From the IMG/VR virus record IMGVR_UViG_2609459856_000002: a stretch of DNA of 4,322 nucleotides, one strand, 5' to 3'. The notes under the pieces are model-generated. The model was not told where the DNA came from, made no database searches, and saw only the letters and a list, made by a program, of their open reading frames with translations. Both the position numbers and the translations under genes were made by a program. Shown here piece by piece: positions 414 through 4,322 of this stretch; position 1 is the stretch's first letter; every line of letters starts with the position of its first letter. The DNA comes from a virus (taxonomy: Duplodnaviria > Heunggongvirae > Uroviricota > Caudoviricetes).

Positions 414-1810
414 GCACAAAATTTTATACCCTGCTGACGGATATTGGCGCGGCGAAACTTGCCAGCGCCGCCGCGCTCGGTGTGCCTTTAAAAATTACCC
501 ATATGGCGGTCGGCGATGGCGGCGGAACATTACCAACGCCGGACGCAAAGCAGACAGCACTGGTAAATGAGAAACGCCGGGCTGCGCTGAATATGCTCTA
601 TATCGACCCGCAGAACAGCAGCCAGATTATTGCTGAACAGGTGATCCCTGAAAACGAGGGCGGTTGGTGGATACGTGAAGTGGGCTTGTTTGATGAGTCC
701 GGGGCATTGATTGCCGTGGGTAACTGCCCGGAAAGCTATAAGCCGCAACTGGCTGAAGGCAGTGGGCGTACCCAGACCGTGCGCATGGTGCTGATTACCA
801 GCAGTACGGACAATATCATCCTGAAAATCGACCCTGCTGTAGTGCTGGCAACCCGCAAGTATGTGGATGACAAGGCACTGGAGCTGAAGGTGTACGTGGA
901 TGACCTGATAGCAAAACATCTTGCCGCACTGGACCCGCATTCACAGTATGCACCCAAAGAAAGTCCGACATTTACCGGAACCCCCAAAGCGCCAACGCCA
1001 GCGGCGGGGAATAATACCACTCAGCTTGCGACCACCGCATTTGTTCAGGCGGCACTGACGGCCCTGATTAATGGTGCGCCAGCCACGCTGGACACGCTGA
1101 AAGAAATAGCCGCAGCCATTAACAATGACCCGAAATTCAGTACCACCATTAACAATGCGCTGGCACTGAAAGCGCCGCTGTCGAGTCCGGCACTCACCGG
1201 AACGCCAACAGCCCCCACGGCGGCGCAGTCGGTCAACAATACACAGATTGCCACTACGGCTTTTGTGAAATCGGCGATTGCGGCAATGGTGGGTTCTGCA
1301 CCTGCGGCACTGGATACACTGAACGAACTGGCGGCGGCACTGGGGAATGATCCGAACTTTGCCACGACAATGCTTAATGCGCTGGCAGGTAAACAACCGC
1401 TGGACAATACGCTGACTAATTTGAGTGGAAAGGATGTAGCTGGTCTTCTCACATACCTTGGTTTGGGAGAAGCGGCAAAAAGGAATGTGGGGACAGGGAC
1501 GAATCAGATACCTGATATGGGTAGCTTCACGCTTTCTGTTTCAGGTACTGGATATCAAAAATTACCATCTGGTTTTATTCTTCAGTGGGGCTCAATCGGC
1601 GCACCAGGCATTGCACAGGATGTGGTAACCCATTTTCCGATTGCATTTCCAAACAGATGTCTGCGTGTTTTGGTCTCACAAGACTACACACCAGATAGCG
1701 GGGCTGTTGGTTATATTGCCTGTGCAGGTTTTAGTCCCGACCCGGTTAAATTTATATCCAGAGCCAGTACTCCTGGCCTCGGCGCTTCATTTTTAGCGTT
1801 AGGCTGTTAA
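410..1810 (+). CDS. Tail fibre protein (P2 gpH-like): constant N-terminal part (codons 1-349) fused to the currently expressed variable C-terminal cassette (codons 351-466)
   Basis: 466-aa ORF. The N-terminus [18 protein letters not shown]...HMAVGDGGG...AEGSGR has the hallmark pattern of P2 gpH-family fibre N-termini. There is an internal Ala/Thr-rich tandem repeat. The left crossover site falls in codon 350, so sequence downstream of 1459 belongs to the invertible segment. The C-terminal part carries a [14 protein letters not shown] motif that I recall from fibre tip domains. Confidence 0.9.
962..1402 (+). repeat. Intragenic tandem duplication, 2 x ~74 codons, in the tail fibre shaft (962..1183 and 1184..1402)
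   Basis: Protein repeats [73 protein letters not shown] and [73 protein letters not shown] align end to end. The DNA copies have diverged, so the duplication is old. It resembles the repeat unit common in P2-type fibre shafts. Confidence 0.6.
1446..1471. other. Left crossover site for the DNA invertase (gix/cix/pix/hix-like, 26 bp): TTCTCACATACC-TT-GGTTTGGGAGAA
   Basis: Two 12-bp half-sites with dyad symmetry (TTCTCaCAtACC versus the reverse complement TTCTCcCAaACC) flank a 2-bp core TT at 1458-1459. This matches the known architecture and TTCTC/TTATC...AAACC half-site pattern of Hin/Gin/Cin/Pin sites. A partner site lies in inverted orientation at 3314..3339. Confidence 0.75.
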
Positions 1811-1831
1811 TTTAGCTATATGGAGTGAAAA

Positions 1832-2272
1832 ATGAATTACATATATTCCGCGACTACAAACTCTTTCTATCCGCTGGAGATGAAAGAGGATTACACTCAA
1901 GCTGACTCATGGCCAGATGATGCTGTTGAAGTTGATGAGCAAGTGTATATTGAGTTTTCCGGATTACCACCAAAAGGAAAAATCCGTATCGCTGGAGAAA
2001 ATGGTTTTCCTGCATGGTCTGAAATTCCACCACCAACACATGAGGAACAGATTGCTGCAGCCGAACTGGAAAAGCAGCAACTGATTAATCAGGCCAACGA
2101 TTATATGAACAGTAAACAATGGCCTGGTAAAGCGGCTATTGGTCGTCTGAAAGGTGAGGAACTGGCGCAATATAATTTGTGGCTGGATTATCTGGACGCA
2201 CTGGAACTGGTTGATACCTCCAGTGCTCTAGATATTGAATGGCCTACGCCTCCGGCAGTTCAGGCCAGATGA
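1832..2272 (+). CDS. Tail fibre assembly protein (chaperone), cassette currently in the expressed orientation
   Basis: 146-aa ORF directly downstream of the fibre gene, with a GGAG Shine-Dalgarno at 1822-1825 six nt before the ATG. The C-terminus ...LDYLDALELVDTSSALDIEWPTPP is the conserved C-terminal signature of phage tail-fibre assembly (Tfa) proteins. Confidence 0.85.
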   Translation: MNYIYSATTNSFYPLEMKEDYTQADSWPDDAVEVDEQVYIEFSGLPPKGKIRIAGENGFPAWSEIPPPTHEEQIAAAELEKQQLINQANDYMNSKQWPGKAAIGRLKGEELAQYNLWLDYLDALELVDTSSALDIEWPTPPAVQAR

Positions 2273-2846
2273 CATTCGGCGCGGTGCTGGTATCTGTTGC
2301 CGTCACTGCGTCAATGTAATCCAGCACAGCGTTAAGTCGGGTGGTTTCTGCCTGCGTCAGCTTCCGTCCGGCCTGTAGTTTCAGTTGAATCAGACTAATG
2401 GAAGCCATTGCTGCATCAATCAGTGACTGGCGCAGTGCTTCTGCCGCGTCTACTGCGGCATTATGCTGTGCCTCAGTATCTGTCACCCATTTCTCACCAT
2501 CCCATTCATCGTATGGCGTTAACGGGGCGATAGTGGTCGTATTTTCAGGATAATCACCCGGACCTGTGATTTCTTTCGATTCTCCTGTTTCGGTGCTATA
2601 AACGATTTCACCGCGATGGTCTGGCACATATTCCCATGAGTTTAAATCCATCGAACGGCAGATAGCATAACCCGCCTTATGTGTGCCAGGGGCATCTAAA
2701 CAGGAATATGCAGGGATACCGACACCAATGGCAAGATATTCATTTGAAGTGGAAATATATTCCCGAGTTTCACCATCATAGTTATAGACGGTAATATTCC
2801 CCGCCTTCGTGGCAATAAGCTCGCTATTTAATACGGCGTTATCCAT
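2244..2846 (-). CDS. Tail fibre assembly protein (chaperone), alternate cassette in the silent orientation
   Basis: 200-aa ORF on the - strand. The C-terminus ...LDYIDAVTATDTSTAPNVIWPELPEA shares the Tfa signature with the + strand chaperone. Its ATG overlaps the stop of the upstream fibre cassette by one base (TAATG on the - strand at 2848-2844). Confidence 0.8.
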   Translation of the reverse strand: MDNAVLNSELIATKAGNITVYNYDGETREYISTSNEYLAIGVGIPAYSCLDAPGTHKAGYAICRSMDLNSWEYVPDHRGEIVYSTETGESKEITGPGDYPENTTTIAPLTPYDEWDGEKWVTDTEAQHNAAVDAAEALRQSLIDAAMASISLIQLKLQAGRKLTQAETTRLNAVLDYIDAVTATDTSTAPNVIWPELPEA

Positions 2847-3367
2847 TATGCAGCCCTCACGATAAAGTTAAATGCAATATTTCGTGGACGGGTTTCACTC
2901 CCGCCAGTATTACCGATACTCCCTCGTGAATGAAGTGTCGGTGATGGGATCAGACTCCCTCCTGTATTTGTGGCATCAAGTCCCCGTCCTTGTGTGTATG
3001 TCTTTTTGAAAATCGTAGCCAGTTCCCATTCATCTTTTGTGTCGTAACCATCATTGGCAACAACAATATGACGGTGCTTTTCCAGCATCCCAGCCTGAAG
3101 GCTCAATAAAGCACGTCCTGCATCAATACCGCGCCCGTCATCCCAGCCACGAATAAACTCACCGCGTAAATCAGGTAATTTATTTGCCGGGTAAGCCTTT
3201 GCCAGTTTCGGGTATTCTTCAGCAGAAAAAGGAGCACCGTTGCATTTCAGCCAGCCTGTTGGAGGTGTCTCAGAAGGCCACGGAACAGGCGCACCAATAG
3301 GTAATGCTGAACCTTCTCCCAAACCAACGTTTATGAAAGTGCAGAGATAATGGCTAACTGGCATCAT
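2846..3367 (-). CDS. Alternative tail fibre C-terminal cassette (Sv'), silent in this orientation; the functional part is 2846..3325, and codons upstream of the crossover lie outside the segment
   Basis: The - strand ORF ends ...ETRPRNIAFNFIVRAA and contains DLRGEFIRGWDDGRG, closely resembling the C-terminal collar-type domain of Mu S / P1 S-type fibres as I recall them (ending NIAFNYIVRLA). It has no constant N-terminal domain of its own. It is in frame with the fibre constant region across the crossover site: after inversion the junction would read ...[18 protein letters not shown].... Confidence 0.8.
   Translation of the reverse strand: MMPVSHYLCTFINVGLGEGSALPIGAPVPWPSETPPTGWLKCNGAPFSAEEYPKLAKAYPANKLPDLRGEFIRGWDDGRGIDAGRALLSLQAGMLEKHRHIVVANDGYDTKDEWELATIFKKTYTQGRGLDATNTGGSLIPSPTLHSRGSIGNTGGSETRPRNIAFNFIVRAA
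3314..3339. other. Right crossover site for the DNA invertase (26 bp): TTCTCCCAAACC-AA-CGTTTATGAAAG
   Basis: The reverse complement of 3313..3327 is identical to 1458..1472 (TTGGTTTGGGAGAAG, 15/15). The inner half-site TTCTCCCAAACC matches the family consensus; the outer half-site (reverse complement CTTTCATAAACG) is degenerate. It lies 55 bp upstream of the invertase ATG. Confidence 0.7.
3346..3351 (+). promoter_or_regulatory. Candidate -10 hexamer (GATAAT) for the invertase promoter
   Basis: GATAAT lies 44 bp upstream of the invertase ATG and 7 bp downstream of the right crossover site. Any -35 element at standard spacing would overlap the crossover site; that region (AACCAA) is a poor match to TTGACA. 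Sequence-only guess. Confidence 0.25.
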
Positions 3368-3394
3368 CCCCGGTTTTTATTCAGGGGATTGATC

Positions 3395-3961
3395 ATGCTT
3401 ATTGGCTATGTACGCGTGTCAACAAATGACCAGAACACCGATTTGCAACGTAATGCACTGAACTGCGCGGGATGTGAGCGGATTTTTGAGGACAAAATCA
3501 GTGGTACTAAGTCCGACAGACCGGGGCTTAAAAAACTGCTCAGGACACTATCGGCAGGTGACACACTGGTTGTCTGGAAGCTGGACAGGTTGGGGCGCAG
3601 TATGCGGCATCTTGTTACTCTGATAGAAGAGTTGCGCCAGCGCGGCGTGAATTTCAGAAGTCTGACTGACAGTATTGATACCAGTACCCCAATGGGCCGT
3701 TTCTTTTTTCATGTCATGGGTGCCCTGGCTGAAATGGAACGCGAACTGATAGTTGAACGTACCAGGGCAGGGCTGGCTGCAGCTCGTGCTAAAGGCAGAG
3801 TAGGTGGACGCCGTCCTAAGTTGACCACCGAACAGTGGGCACAGATTGGACGTTTACTAGAGGTCGGAGAATCAAGACAGCGTATTGCACTGATTTTTGA
3901 TGTGGGCGTTTCTACCATTTATAGAAAATTTCCGGCAAATAAGAGCAGTGAATCCCCCTGA
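3395..3961 (+). CDS. Site-specific DNA invertase, serine recombinase of the Gin/Cin/Pin/Hin family
   Basis: 188-aa product starting MLIGYVRVSTNDQNTDLQRNAL, with the catalytic serine at residue 9 (codon 3419-3421). Conserved blocks VVWKLDRLGRS, SLTDSIDTSTPMGRFFFHVMGALAEMERELIVERT and GRVGGRRPKL, plus a C-terminal helix-turn-helix, are near-identical in pattern to Gin/Pin. Shine-Dalgarno AGGGGA at 3383-3388. The ORF track starts at 3350 (MANWHH...), but family N-termini begin at MLIGY, so 3395 is the likely start. Confidence 0.93.
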   Translation: MLIGYVRVSTNDQNTDLQRNALNCAGCERIFEDKISGTKSDRPGLKKLLRTLSAGDTLVVWKLDRLGRSMRHLVTLIEELRQRGVNFRSLTDSIDTSTPMGRFFFHVMGALAEMERELIVERTRAGLAAARAKGRVGGRRPKLTTEQWAQIGRLLEVGESRQRIALIFDVGVSTIYRKFPANKSSESP

Positions 3962-4009
3962 ATCAGCATAATTTTGATTATCCCTGCAAGTAGACAAATA
4001 CCGTCATTT

Positions 4010-4027
4010 TGTGTGAATAACGGTACA
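4010..4027 (+). promoter_or_regulatory. P2 late-promoter-like activator dyad (TGT-N12-ACA) upstream of the tail sheath gene
   Basis: TGTGTGAATAACGGTACA is an exact TGT-N12-ACA, the motif described at about -55 in Ogr/Delta-activated late promoters of P2/P4/186. It sits about 77-94 bp upstream of the sheath ATG, with a -35-like TTGTCA at 4043-4048 and a weak -10-like CAACAT at 4063-4068. The spacing is plausible but unverified. Confidence 0.4.
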
Positions 4028-4103
4028 ACTGCGCTTAGCTGTTTGTCAGGCACAATCACTTCAACATAGGGCGAAGCCTAATCCAATCAGGAGGTTCGCC
4101 ACT

Positions 4104-4322
4104 ATGGCTCAGGATTACCACCACGGGGTGCGCGTTGTTGAAGTCAACGAAGGCACCCGATCCATTACCACGGTGAGCACCGCCATCGTGGGTATGGTCT
4201 GCACGGGCGATGATGCCGATACAAAAATGTTTCCTCTTAATAAACCCGTGCTGATCACTGATGTGCTGACTGCCAGCGGTAAAGCGGGTGAGTCCGGTAC
4301 TCTGGCCCGTTCGCTGGATGCC
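4104..4322 (+). CDS. Tail sheath protein (P2 gpFI-like), 3'-partial (runs off the window end)
   Basis: ATG at 4104 is preceded by CAGGAGG (4088-4094). The frame is open for 73 codons to the window end: [54 protein letters not shown].... This closely resembles the N-terminus of P2 FI-family sheath proteins (MSDYHHGVQVLEINEGTR...[12 protein letters not shown]...[10 protein letters not shown] as I recall it). It is absent from the ORF track only because there is no stop in the window. Confidence 0.85.

Follow-up and report, generated by a model that had tools for sequence, protein, structure and literature searches.

Conflicting contig junctions point to an invertible tail-fibre switch in a P2-like prophage of Escherichia coli 3-267-03_S1_C2

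Introduction

Does the tail-fibre region of a P2-like prophage encode a DNA switch that chooses between two fibre tips, and does this switch still turn over in its host strain? The window, i.e. the whole stretch of DNA analysed here, is a complete contig of 4322 bp, both ends of which lie within genes (I and FI). An earlier note, based on the sequence alone, had proposed that it harbours a complete Gin/Cin/Pin-type switch. According to our analysis, the window very probably (at a probability of roughly 0.88) carries a Pin/Gin/Cin-type site-specific inversion switch, which determines the receptor-binding tip at the C-terminus of the tail fibre in a P2-like prophage of E. coli 3-267-03_S1_C2. 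As the earlier note had recognized, this class of system is already known from its counterparts in e14, Mu and P1; it is an ordinary phage device.

Results

Anatomy of the locus

The anatomy is established: the two inverted 26-bp sites, the two head-to-head cassettes and the invertase of the proposed switch were all located, and the following features could be assigned.

1-413, + strand: 3' part of a P2 gene I homologue (baseplate protein; Pfam Tail_P2_I, E=5.8e-23), cut by the contig end according to the gene caller
410-1810, + strand: tail-fibre gene in the orientation of the window (466 aa; protein KDT95960.1)
410-1459, + strand: constant part of the fibre, P2 H-like, 350 codons (Pfam Phage_tail_fib N-terminal domain, E=5e-64)
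1446-1471, + strand: left crossover site, TTCTCACATACC-TT-GGTTTGGGAGAA, core TT at 1458-1459, inside the fibre reading frame
1460-1810, + strand: cassette A, fibre C-terminus of 116 codons plus stop (Pfam Gp53-like_C, E=1.2e-13)
1832-2272, + strand: chaperone A, tail-fibre assembly protein of 146 aa, co-oriented with cassette A (Pfam Caudo_TAP, E=3.7e-37)
2244-2846, - strand: chaperone B, tail-fibre assembly protein of 200 aa, co-oriented with cassette B (Pfam Caudo_TAP, E=1.9e-30)
2846-3325, - strand: cassette B, silent fibre C-terminus of 159 codons with a tail-collar domain (Pfam Collar, E=1.2e-14; ORF 2846-3367)
3314-3339, + strand: right crossover site, TTCTCCCAAACC-AA-CGTTTATGAAAG, core AA at 3326-3327
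3395-3961, + strand: serine DNA invertase of the Pin/Gin/Cin type, 188 aa (Pfam Resolvase, E=2.5e-53, and HTH_7)
3413-3484, + strand: putative Fis-binding recombinational enhancer, situated in the invertase gene at its 5' end, assigned by position and conservation
3416-3430 and 3465-3479: candidate 15-bp Fis cores inside the putative enhancer
4104-4322, + strand: 5' part of the tail sheath gene, P2 FI homologue (Pfam Gp18_domIII_N, E=1.4e-7), cut by the contig end

Judged by its protein domains (Tail_P2_I, the P2 fibre N-terminal domain and the sheath), the setting is P2-like, in agreement with the tail cluster proposed before. To the right, the inserted switch module is bordered by the sheath gene; in prophages L005 and L008 the invertase gene is followed by a full-length sheath gene, and complete P2-like prophages carry the same module.

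The crossover sites preserve the fibre reading frame

The two sites are inverted to each other and their TT and AA cores are compatible in the inverted alignment, as is the case for pix and cix. A repeat finder returned this pair as the longest inverted repeat of the window (1449-1472/3313-3336, 24 nt, 88%), and a degenerate invertase-site pattern matched at exactly two places, i.e. the crossover sites, with 0 matches in 200 dinucleotide-preserving shuffles. The inner half-site GGTTTGGGAGAA is the same in both. The right site shares 25/26 bases with pixR of e14 and the left site 22/26 with pixL, including an identical inner half; by sequence, the sites are homologous to characterised ones, which answers the objection that their resemblance could be coincidental. 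The outer half of the right site fits the half-site consensus weakly, with 5 of 12 positions deviating, and the outer half of the functional pixR site likewise fits poorly. In the fibre frame both sites translate to Gly-Leu-Gly-Glu and, therefore, inversion of the intervening segment preserves the frame. The second site lies 1.87 kb downstream of the first, resulting in an invertible segment of ~1.9 kb.

The fibre constant part is expressed whichever way the segment points; its residues 181-340 are 80.6% identical to residues 253-412 of P1 S. Cassette A, which is the one expressed in the orientation of the window, shares only 29% identity with the C-terminus of e14 StfP, and the C-terminal 102 aa of chaperone A are 60% identical to e14 TfaP. 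Over its entire 200 aa, chaperone B shares 90.5% identity with e14 TfaE, and its 3' end overlaps chaperone A by a computed 29 nt, an overlap that recurs in e14. The cassette sizes given in the earlier note proved exact, and the Caudo_TAP domains confirmed both chaperones. When the segment was inverted in silico, cassette B, which carries no disabling mutation, joined the constant part in frame to yield a 509-aa fibre. The claim that inversion would express a Mu/P1 S-like 159-codon cassette with a 200-aa chaperone thus stood as far as sizes and fusion are concerned, whereas the likeness to S had to be given up: similarity of cassette B to Mu S, Mu S' and P2 H was not significant (E 0.18-0.57) and BLAST gave no match to P1 S. 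Cassette B is instead e14 StfE-like (57% identity).

The invertase appears intact

The invertase gene starts 55 bp outside the right crossover site. Its product is 84.8% identical to PinE, 77.4% to Cin and 73.4% to Gin, and aligns with the Gin crystal-structure chain 3UJ3 at E=1.4e-92; together with the pix-like sites, this upholds the type assignment and establishes homology to characterised enzymes. All catalytic residues are present (Y5, R7, S9, D64, R65, R68), among them the serine that had been pointed out before. In addition, the protein possesses basic helix-B residues (K46/K47/R50) and a Q-x-x-R-L motif (Q150/R153/L154), features reported to be specific to Fis/enhancer-dependent invertases (PMC3798978). 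His106 and Met114, positions discussed for activated mutants, are wild type, and no disabling mutation was seen. A simple scan of the upstream region did not find a sigma-70 consensus promoter. The P1 record places an enhancer at nt 19-90 of cin; the putative enhancer occupies the equivalent position and is 78% identical to it, with 88% identity to the corresponding part of pinE and 72% to that of gin. The G-N13-C cores of the candidate Fis sites are conserved in position; these sites are predicted from position and conservation, within a coding stretch that is strongly conserved as a whole.

Both orientations are present in one assembly

Lack of any support for the inverted orientation would, according to the earlier note, have spoken against a switch. 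The flipped left junction, however, is present on a second contig of the same assembly. The 509-aa fibre generated in silico matches exactly KDT95045.1 of E. coli 3-267-03_S1_C2, the strain that also yields the 466-aa fibre of the window. KDT95045.1 is encoded by contig JNMN01000058.1 (L007; 2047 bp), which agrees with the flipped window at 2046/2047 nt. This contig diverges from the native window from nt 1473 onward, with the breakpoint in the left site; the constant part is identical in both contigs, and the 575 nt that the second contig has of the flipped segment match the silent cassette of the window without a single difference. No annotated protein was found for the flipped right junction. 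Since both left junctions occur in one assembly, both orientations exist in the DNA of the isolate. From the two contigs we infer that they co-exist in one culture and, as the draft genome holds both orientations, the switch has probably been flipping in strain 3-267-03_S1_C2.

Alternatively, the strain could carry two nearly identical copies of the P2-like prophage, one locked in either orientation, in which case the switch was active once and not necessarily is now. Within the shared flank the contigs are identical at 1471/1472 bases, the sole difference being nt 70 (G versus T), which could reflect a sequencing error or a second prophage copy. Moreover, the two contigs share their starting base within gene I, and the window breaks off in FI, as expected for repeat boundaries between several P2-like prophages, and many E. 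coli genomes contain several matching places (median 2, up to 11). Nevertheless, we regard two fixed copies as unlikely: nt 70 is part of a G-rich run at a distance of 70 nt from the contig end, the near-perfect agreement of flank and flipped cassette is at odds with the 3-6% divergence of related prophages in other strains, every part of the switch is intact, and a second, unrelated assembly (L009) likewise shows conflicting junctions.

Orientation varies among relatives

Of the complete E. coli genomes, 52 were found to have the native arrangement and 59 the flipped one. In E. coli W12-1, a complete P2-like prophage (L005) has the whole module flipped, and the blocks of its alignment with the window switch strand, without gaps, only within 1446-1472 and 3313-3336, which establishes that the orientations differ by breakpoints in the sites. 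Orientation varies in isolated phages, too. No identical record was found in the collections searched, the best full-length match being 94.6%. Experiments have demonstrated inversion for e14 and for P2-like EPEC prophages (PMC4272514).

Discussion

Could the switch have been kept for the benefit of the host, or belong to a tail-like bacteriocin with switched killing range? When the P segment of e14 inverts, the protein StfE2 is reportedly made, which blocks T2 adsorption (PMC12529663), and an inverted fibre fusion might similarly block the receptors of other phages; relatedness of cassette B and chaperone B to StfE and TfaE fits this idea, as does the window's content of tail genes only. However, the closest complete relatives are full P2-like prophages because capsid, terminase, lysis and ogr genes are present, the isolated phages Cartapus, 500465-1 and KP12 carry the same module, and the fibre has the full P2-type N-terminal domain for baseplate attachment, while the e14 genes are truncated. 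Both variants thus appear improbable. Even less credible is a frozen remnant, whose invertase is not expressed or whose degenerate outer half-sites are no longer bound, so that orientation differences would be old: the failure to find a consensus promoter and the poor right outer half-site would fit this reading, but the same right site with one base changed serves the e14 P segment, for which inversion was observed experimentally, both orientations are about equally frequent in complete genomes and occur together in one assembly, and enzyme and silent cassette lack disabling mutations.

We therefore favor an active inversion switch, whose operation can be pictured by analogy with the Hin/Gin literature. 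The 350-codon constant part would read into the first 26-bp site, with the inverted second site downstream and, in between, two head-to-head cassettes, each comprising a fibre C-terminus and then its own chaperone. The invertase, encoded just beyond the right site, would bind both sites as dimers and assemble with the Fis-bound enhancer in its own 5' coding region. Both sites would be cut with a 2-bp stagger at the TT/AA cores, one subunit pair would rotate by 180 degrees, and religation would leave the segment turned over. The fibre tip would be the 116-residue gp53-like domain with co-transcription of the 146-aa chaperone in the orientation of the window, and the 159-residue collar domain with co-transcription of the 200-aa TfaE-like chaperone after inversion. 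From the same literature we infer Fis/enhancer dependence, the strand-exchange chemistry and the host-range consequence: if the mechanism is true, a lysogen population would release particles with two adsorption specificities.

Comparison with known systems

Phage P2 has the same tail gene order, I-H-G followed by the FI sheath operon. In P2, however, the H/G pair is fixed and the non-essential fun(Z) lies between G and FI, a slot that the window fills with silent cassettes and the invertase; the C-terminus of P2 H shows no similarity to cassette B.

The G segment/Gin of Mu and the C segment/Cin of P1 likewise combine a constant S part with two head-to-head Sv plus U cassettes, 26-bp sites within the fibre frame and an adjoining invertase (73-77% identical to that of the window). 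P1 also shares the TT/AA cores of cix and an enhancer in the 5' end of the invertase gene. At 1.87 kb, the segment of the window is shorter than those of Mu (~3 kb) and P1 (4.2 kb). Mu further differs by the TC/GA core of gix, and cassette B lacks detectable similarity to S or S' of Mu. In P1, cin is located on the other side, its 3' end abutting cixL.

The P segment/PinE of e14 in E. coli K-12 has the same order of fibre constant part, cassette, chaperone, inverted chaperone, inverted cassette and invertase. Besides the invertase (84.8%), right site (25/26), inner half-sites, TfaE (90.5%) and the 29-nt overlap, the DNA is 82-89% identical across 2095-2896 and 3094-3856 of the window. In contrast, e14 is a defective lambdoid remnant whose fibre genes are truncated, stfE carrying a pseudogene annotation, while in the window the module belongs to a P2-type tail cluster and the N-terminus of the fibre is complete. 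Cassette A and StfP are, at 29% identity, unrelated in detail, and the last ~65 residues of cassette B diverge, the DNA similarity stopping between 2896 and 3094.

Closely related modules occur in Peduoviridae, for example Escherichia phages Cartapus, 500465-1 and pro483, Klebsiella phage KP12 and the P2-like prophages of EPEC E2348/69, with 94-97% identity over the flanks and most of the module; between fibre and sheath genes, their annotation gives a DNA invertase and two genes for tail-fibre assembly. In contrast to the window, other cassettes or three sites, arranged as in a shufflon, are found in some of these P2-like relatives; phase variation of P2-like prophages has been demonstrated by sequencing and PCR (PMC4272514).

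Two alternative fibre tips between inverted crossover sites

The window corresponds to the entire contig JNMN01000052.1 (4322 bp) of assembly GCA_000700365.1, which originates from Escherichia coli 3-267-03_S1_C2. It carries the following features:

1-413: homologue of P2 gene I (Pfam Tail_P2_I), of which the 3' part is present
410-1810: tail fibre of 466 aa with a P2-type N-terminal fibre domain (Phage_tail_fib) and a C-terminal Gp53-like_C domain
1832-2272, plus strand: chaperone A, a fibre assembly chaperone of 146 aa (Caudo_TAP)
2244-2846, minus strand: chaperone B, 200 aa (Caudo_TAP)
2846-3367, minus strand: open frame with a tail-collar domain (Pfam Collar), which contains the silent cassette B
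3395-3961: resolvase-family invertase of 188 aa with an HTH_7 domain
4104-4322: 5' start of the tail sheath gene (sheath domain)

The earlier note had proposed that two inverted 26-bp crossover sites delimit the switch. Both sites were found, the left one at 1446-1471 (TTCTCACATACC-TT-GGTTTGGGAGAA) and the right one at 3314-3339 (TTCTCCCAAACC-AA-CGTTTATGAAAG, in which AA reads TT on the other strand), and a repeat search returned 1449-1472 and 3313-3336 as the longest inverted repeat of the window. A degenerate pattern for invertase sites matched in exactly these two places and in none of 200 shuffled sequences. Looser matches at 3358 and 3511 contain two core mismatches each and lack the half-site flanks. 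A shufflon, which employs more than two crossover sites, is rejected, as the pattern search gives two sites only. The sites are inverted relative to each other and each is an imperfect palindrome around a 2-bp core, as expected for Fis/enhancer-dependent invertases; the inner half-site does not differ between left and right. On the plus strand, the cores TT and AA are complementary to each other and therefore match once the sites are aligned as inverted repeats. Matching cores are needed for religation after the 2-bp staggered cut. When compared to the sites of the P segment of e14 (E. coli K-12), the right site agrees with pixR in 25/26 positions. For the left site and pixL the number is 22/26, the inner halves being identical. 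The pix sites and the cix sites of the P1 C segment have TT/AA cores like the sites studied here, whereas the gix sites of the Mu G segment have TC/GA.

In the fibre frame, both sites encode Gly-Leu-Gly-Glu. Inversion of 1460-3325 in silico, yielding the arrangement subsequently designated flipped, generated an uninterrupted fibre of 509 aa, whose frame crosses the junction without a stop, as compared to 466 aa in the native orientation. A 509-aa fibre is also annotated in two complete P2-like prophages, namely that of E. coli W12-1 (L005) and a further relative (L008), and on a second contig of the window's own assembly. Counted from the site, the expressed cassette A comprises 116 codons and cassette B 159 codons, which are exactly the sizes claimed previously. 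Each cassette is accompanied by a co-oriented Caudo_TAP chaperone, and the two sets lie head to head with their 3' ends facing; gene positions and domains thus agree with the proposed pair of alternative fibre C-terminus and chaperone cassettes. The tips carry unrelated domains, i.e. Gp53-like_C in cassette A versus Collar in cassette B.

One label did not hold. The 159-codon cassette had been described as Mu/P1 S-like, but this is wrong, because cassette B is not significantly similar to Mu S, Mu S' or the C-terminus of P2 H in BLASTP (E 0.18-0.57), and P1 S matches the constant part of the fibre only. Residues 181-340 of this constant part are 80.6% identical to residues 253-412 of P1 S, and the P1 fibre and the constant part therefore have a module in common. 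Of note, the constant part contains, at 962-1402 of the window, two tandem repeats of ~74 residues (aa 185-257 and 258-331; 45/74 identical).

The frame of cassette B stays open for 14 codons past the crossover site (minus strand, 3326-3367), up to an ATG at 3367 (MMPVSHYLCTFINV...). As a consequence, gene callers report a free-standing 'tail fiber protein' of 172-173 aa, comparable to stfE of e14, but this ATG is most likely not a genuine start. The two chaperone genes converge and have the last 29 nt of their 3' ends in common (2244-2272), and an overlap of equal length is annotated for tfaP and tfaE of e14. A further inverted repeat, 2182-2203 and 2304-2325, reflects the homologous C-termini of the chaperones (LDYLDAL and LDYIDAV).

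Both orientations occur in the assembly of E. coli 3-267-03_S1_C2

An exact-sequence look-up identified the 509-aa fibre constructed in silico as KDT95045.1, 'phage Tail Collar domain protein [Escherichia coli 3-267-03_S1_C2]', while the 466-aa fibre of the window is KDT95960.1 of the same strain. KDT95045.1 is encoded on JNMN01000058.1, a contig of 2047 bp from the window's assembly. This contig starts with the first base of the window, has its first 1472 nt in common with it and diverges from the native arrangement at nt 1473, i.e. at the inner edge of the left site; past nt 1472, it is the exact reverse complement of window 3312-2738. In comparison to the flipped construct, 2046 of its 2047 positions are identical. 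The exception, which is at the same time the sole difference within the shared 1472 nt, is nt 70 in a G-rich run, where the window has G (GGCGGGGGGTGG) and JNMN01000058.1 has T (GGCGGGTGGTGG). Support for the inverted orientation, on which the earlier note had made its proposal depend, is hence present in the form of a flipped left junction in the same assembly. For the flipped right junction of this assembly, the predicted ORFs of 129 aa and 130 aa were absent from the protein collection.

These data are explained most simply if the DNA that was sequenced contained both orientations side by side and the assembler retained both paths. The difference at nt 70 could be a sequencing error or the sign of a second prophage copy. 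Two near-identical prophage copies residing in the genome in opposite orientations would be compatible with this single mismatch as well as with the start common to both contigs, but we regard such a constellation as improbable beside the simpler mixture of orientations. Accordingly, the switch is probably live in E. coli 3-267-03_S1_C2, and phage released from this isolate should therefore represent a mix of two fibre types.

Both orientations are also found across genomes. When the native window was compared to phage records by megablast, just 57% of the query was covered in phages such as KP12, Kp4845-2 and 500465-1, while the flipped window was covered to 81-84% in the same records. The opposite pattern was obtained for CP019275 and Cartapus, in which the native window was covered better than the flipped one. 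Among complete E. coli genomes, 52 match the native and 59 the flipped arrangement (positions 1000-3800 as query, at least 80% coverage in one place). The best flipped match is E. coli W12-1, which harbors a complete P2-like prophage adjoining ssrA and encoding the 509-aa fibre. It aligns with the window in three gap-free blocks (1-1472 plus, 1446-3336 minus and 3313-4322 plus). As the overlaps between these blocks are confined to the two sites, window and W12-1 are related by a clean inversion, the breakpoints of which lie within the predicted sites.

In a second, unrelated assembly (GCA_002977195.1), one scaffold connects two junction types across ten Ns (7380-7577). On one side of the Ns, invertase, right site and start of the collar cassette form a native-type right junction; on the other, genes V-W-J-I and a 509-aa H-collar fusion form a flipped-type left junction. 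Conflicting junctions of this kind are as expected of a culture with mixed orientations. In one E. coli genome (NZ_CP060065.1, 1156874-1160444), the flipped module is broken by an IS1A element and represents a disrupted copy of the switch.

The invertase and its candidate enhancer

The claim of a Gin/Cin/Pin-type invertase stands. The 188-aa protein has the architecture of small serine recombinases, which comprise about 185-195 aa and combine an N-terminal resolvase domain bearing the nucleophilic serine with a C-terminal helix-turn-helix (Pfam Resolvase, E=2.5e-53; HTH_7, E=1.2e-14). It possesses Tyr5, Arg7, Ser9, Asp64, Arg65 and Arg68, and shares 84.8% identity with PinE, 77.4% with Cin and 73.4% with Gin. 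It matches the chains of the Gin crystal structure with E=1e-92, as compared to 3e-34 for gamma-delta resolvase. In Hin, the basic residues 47, 48 and 51 as well as Gln151, Arg154 and Leu155 contact Fis and the enhancer; they are conserved only among Fis/enhancer-dependent invertases and distinguish these from resolvases (PMC3798978). The equivalent residues of the window protein, K46, K47, R50, Q150, R153 and L154, all match this invertase-specific set (Hin numbering equals window numbering + 1 according to the 1HCR alignment). For catalysis of inversion by this protein, the two orientations seen within one assembly and across genomes, with breakpoints in the sites, are indirect evidence; dependence on Fis and supercoiling would be predicted. 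Its cluster at 90% identity comprises 2365 sequences, and the exact protein is encoded on 94 contigs.

A simple scan upstream of 3395 gave no consensus promoter for the invertase; inspection by eye revealed a -10-like GATAAT at 3346-3351, for which a good -35 is absent. With the in-frame ATG at 3350 as start, the invertase would be 203 aa long, but the gene caller and the homologues begin at 3395. The interval from the right site to the start of the invertase contains a terminator-like hairpin followed by a T-run (3356-3375).

In the P1 record, the Cin enhancer is annotated at nt 19-90 of cin. The equivalent stretch of the window, 3413-3484, aligns without gaps and shares 78% identity with the cin enhancer; the values for pinE and gin are 88% and 72%, respectively. 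It contains two position-conserved G-N13-C 15-mers (3416-3430 and 3465-3479), which are 49 bp apart. From the centre of the proximal 15-mer to the right core, the distance is 96.5 bp, similar to the corresponding spacing of ~100 bp reported for Hin (PMC3798978). At synonymous positions, 17/24 are identical to pinE inside this stretch and 72/140 outside. Since 3413-3484 at the same time codes for that part of the invertase which is conserved best, conservation alone is no proof, and we consider the stretch a putative recombinational enhancer with candidate Fis sites.

Judging from homology with Hin and Gin (PMC3798978), invertase dimers would occupy both sites and, at a supercoil branch, form a synapse on the enhancer bound by Fis, giving rise to an active tetramer. 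The tetramer would cut all four strands with a 2-bp stagger via phosphoserine links, and one pair of subunits would rotate by 180 degrees prior to religation. The late transcript of the fibre, starting upstream of the window, would then read either cassette A and chaperone A or cassette B and chaperone B. While the anatomy of the module and natural products of its inversion are directly visible, the chemistry, the dependence on Fis and an effect on host range are those predicted for a switch of this type.

The P2-like setting

Tail_P2_I, Phage_tail_fib, Caudo_TAP and sheath domains follow each other in P2-like order, corresponding to baseplate I, fibre H, chaperone G and sheath FI. P2 and the complete relatives L005 and L008 show a matching order of tail genes, and both relatives possess full P2 gene sets including GPO, the P2 capsid protein, V, W, J, T, U, D and Ogr. 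The contig terminates within a conserved P2 gene at either end (I and FI), suggesting borders of repeats that are shared with other P2-like prophages of the genome.

In P2, the activator site of the late promoter pF is annotated 69-97 nt upstream of FI. The only TGT-N12-ACA dyad of the window (TGTGTGAATAACGGTACA) is located at 4010-4027, i.e. 77-94 nt upstream of the sheath start codon, and about one chance match of this kind is expected per window of such size. Homology to pF was rejected, as the region upstream of the sheath gene aligns poorly to P2 and just the dyad is present.

In L005, genes for an AAA-family ATPase and a DUF4435 protein lie on the opposite strand between the homologue of tail gene S and baseplate gene V (6783-8886). 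This pair looks like an anti-phage system of the PARIS type residing in a hotspot of P2. A DUF6216 gene occupies its position in L008.

Relation to known inversion systems

The earlier note had assigned the module to a known class of systems, and this is borne out by the literature and by GenBank. Inversion has been demonstrated for the e14 P segment and for segments of P2-like prophages in EPEC (PMC4272514), and phages bearing the module are already deposited with the invertase annotated. The system is thus already known and the present instance is an ordinary member of a common E. coli prophage family. Its mechanism is textbook matter and carries little weight for discovery; the sole added value is the evidence of switching in E. 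coli 3-267-03_S1_C2. In draft assemblies, inversion switches leave a recognisable trace, either as short additional contigs or as contradictory scaffold joins with one flank in common, and searching for such traces could reveal active inversion without reads.

A role on the side of the host has a very slim chance. Inversion of e14 P is reported to yield a receptor-masking protein, StfE2 (PMC12529663), and the collar-tip fusion arising from inversion of the present module might likewise mask receptors against other phages. As the window sites are nearly identical to pix of e14, the invertase may in addition cross-act with other Pin-type segments of the cell. If true, the switch would toggle a defence of the host and not be a phage host-range device alone.

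In P2, the slot between G and FI is occupied by the non-essential gene fun(Z), whereas the window carries the silent cassettes and the invertase in the same place. The gene order of e14 equals that of the window, i.e. stfP, tfaP, tfaE (inverted), stfE (inverted) and pinE. TfaE is 90.5% identical to chaperone B, and StfE is 57% identical to cassette B with the final ~65 residues diverging. TfaP is 60% identical to chaperone A in its C-terminal part, and the C-terminus of StfP shares just 29% identity with cassette A.
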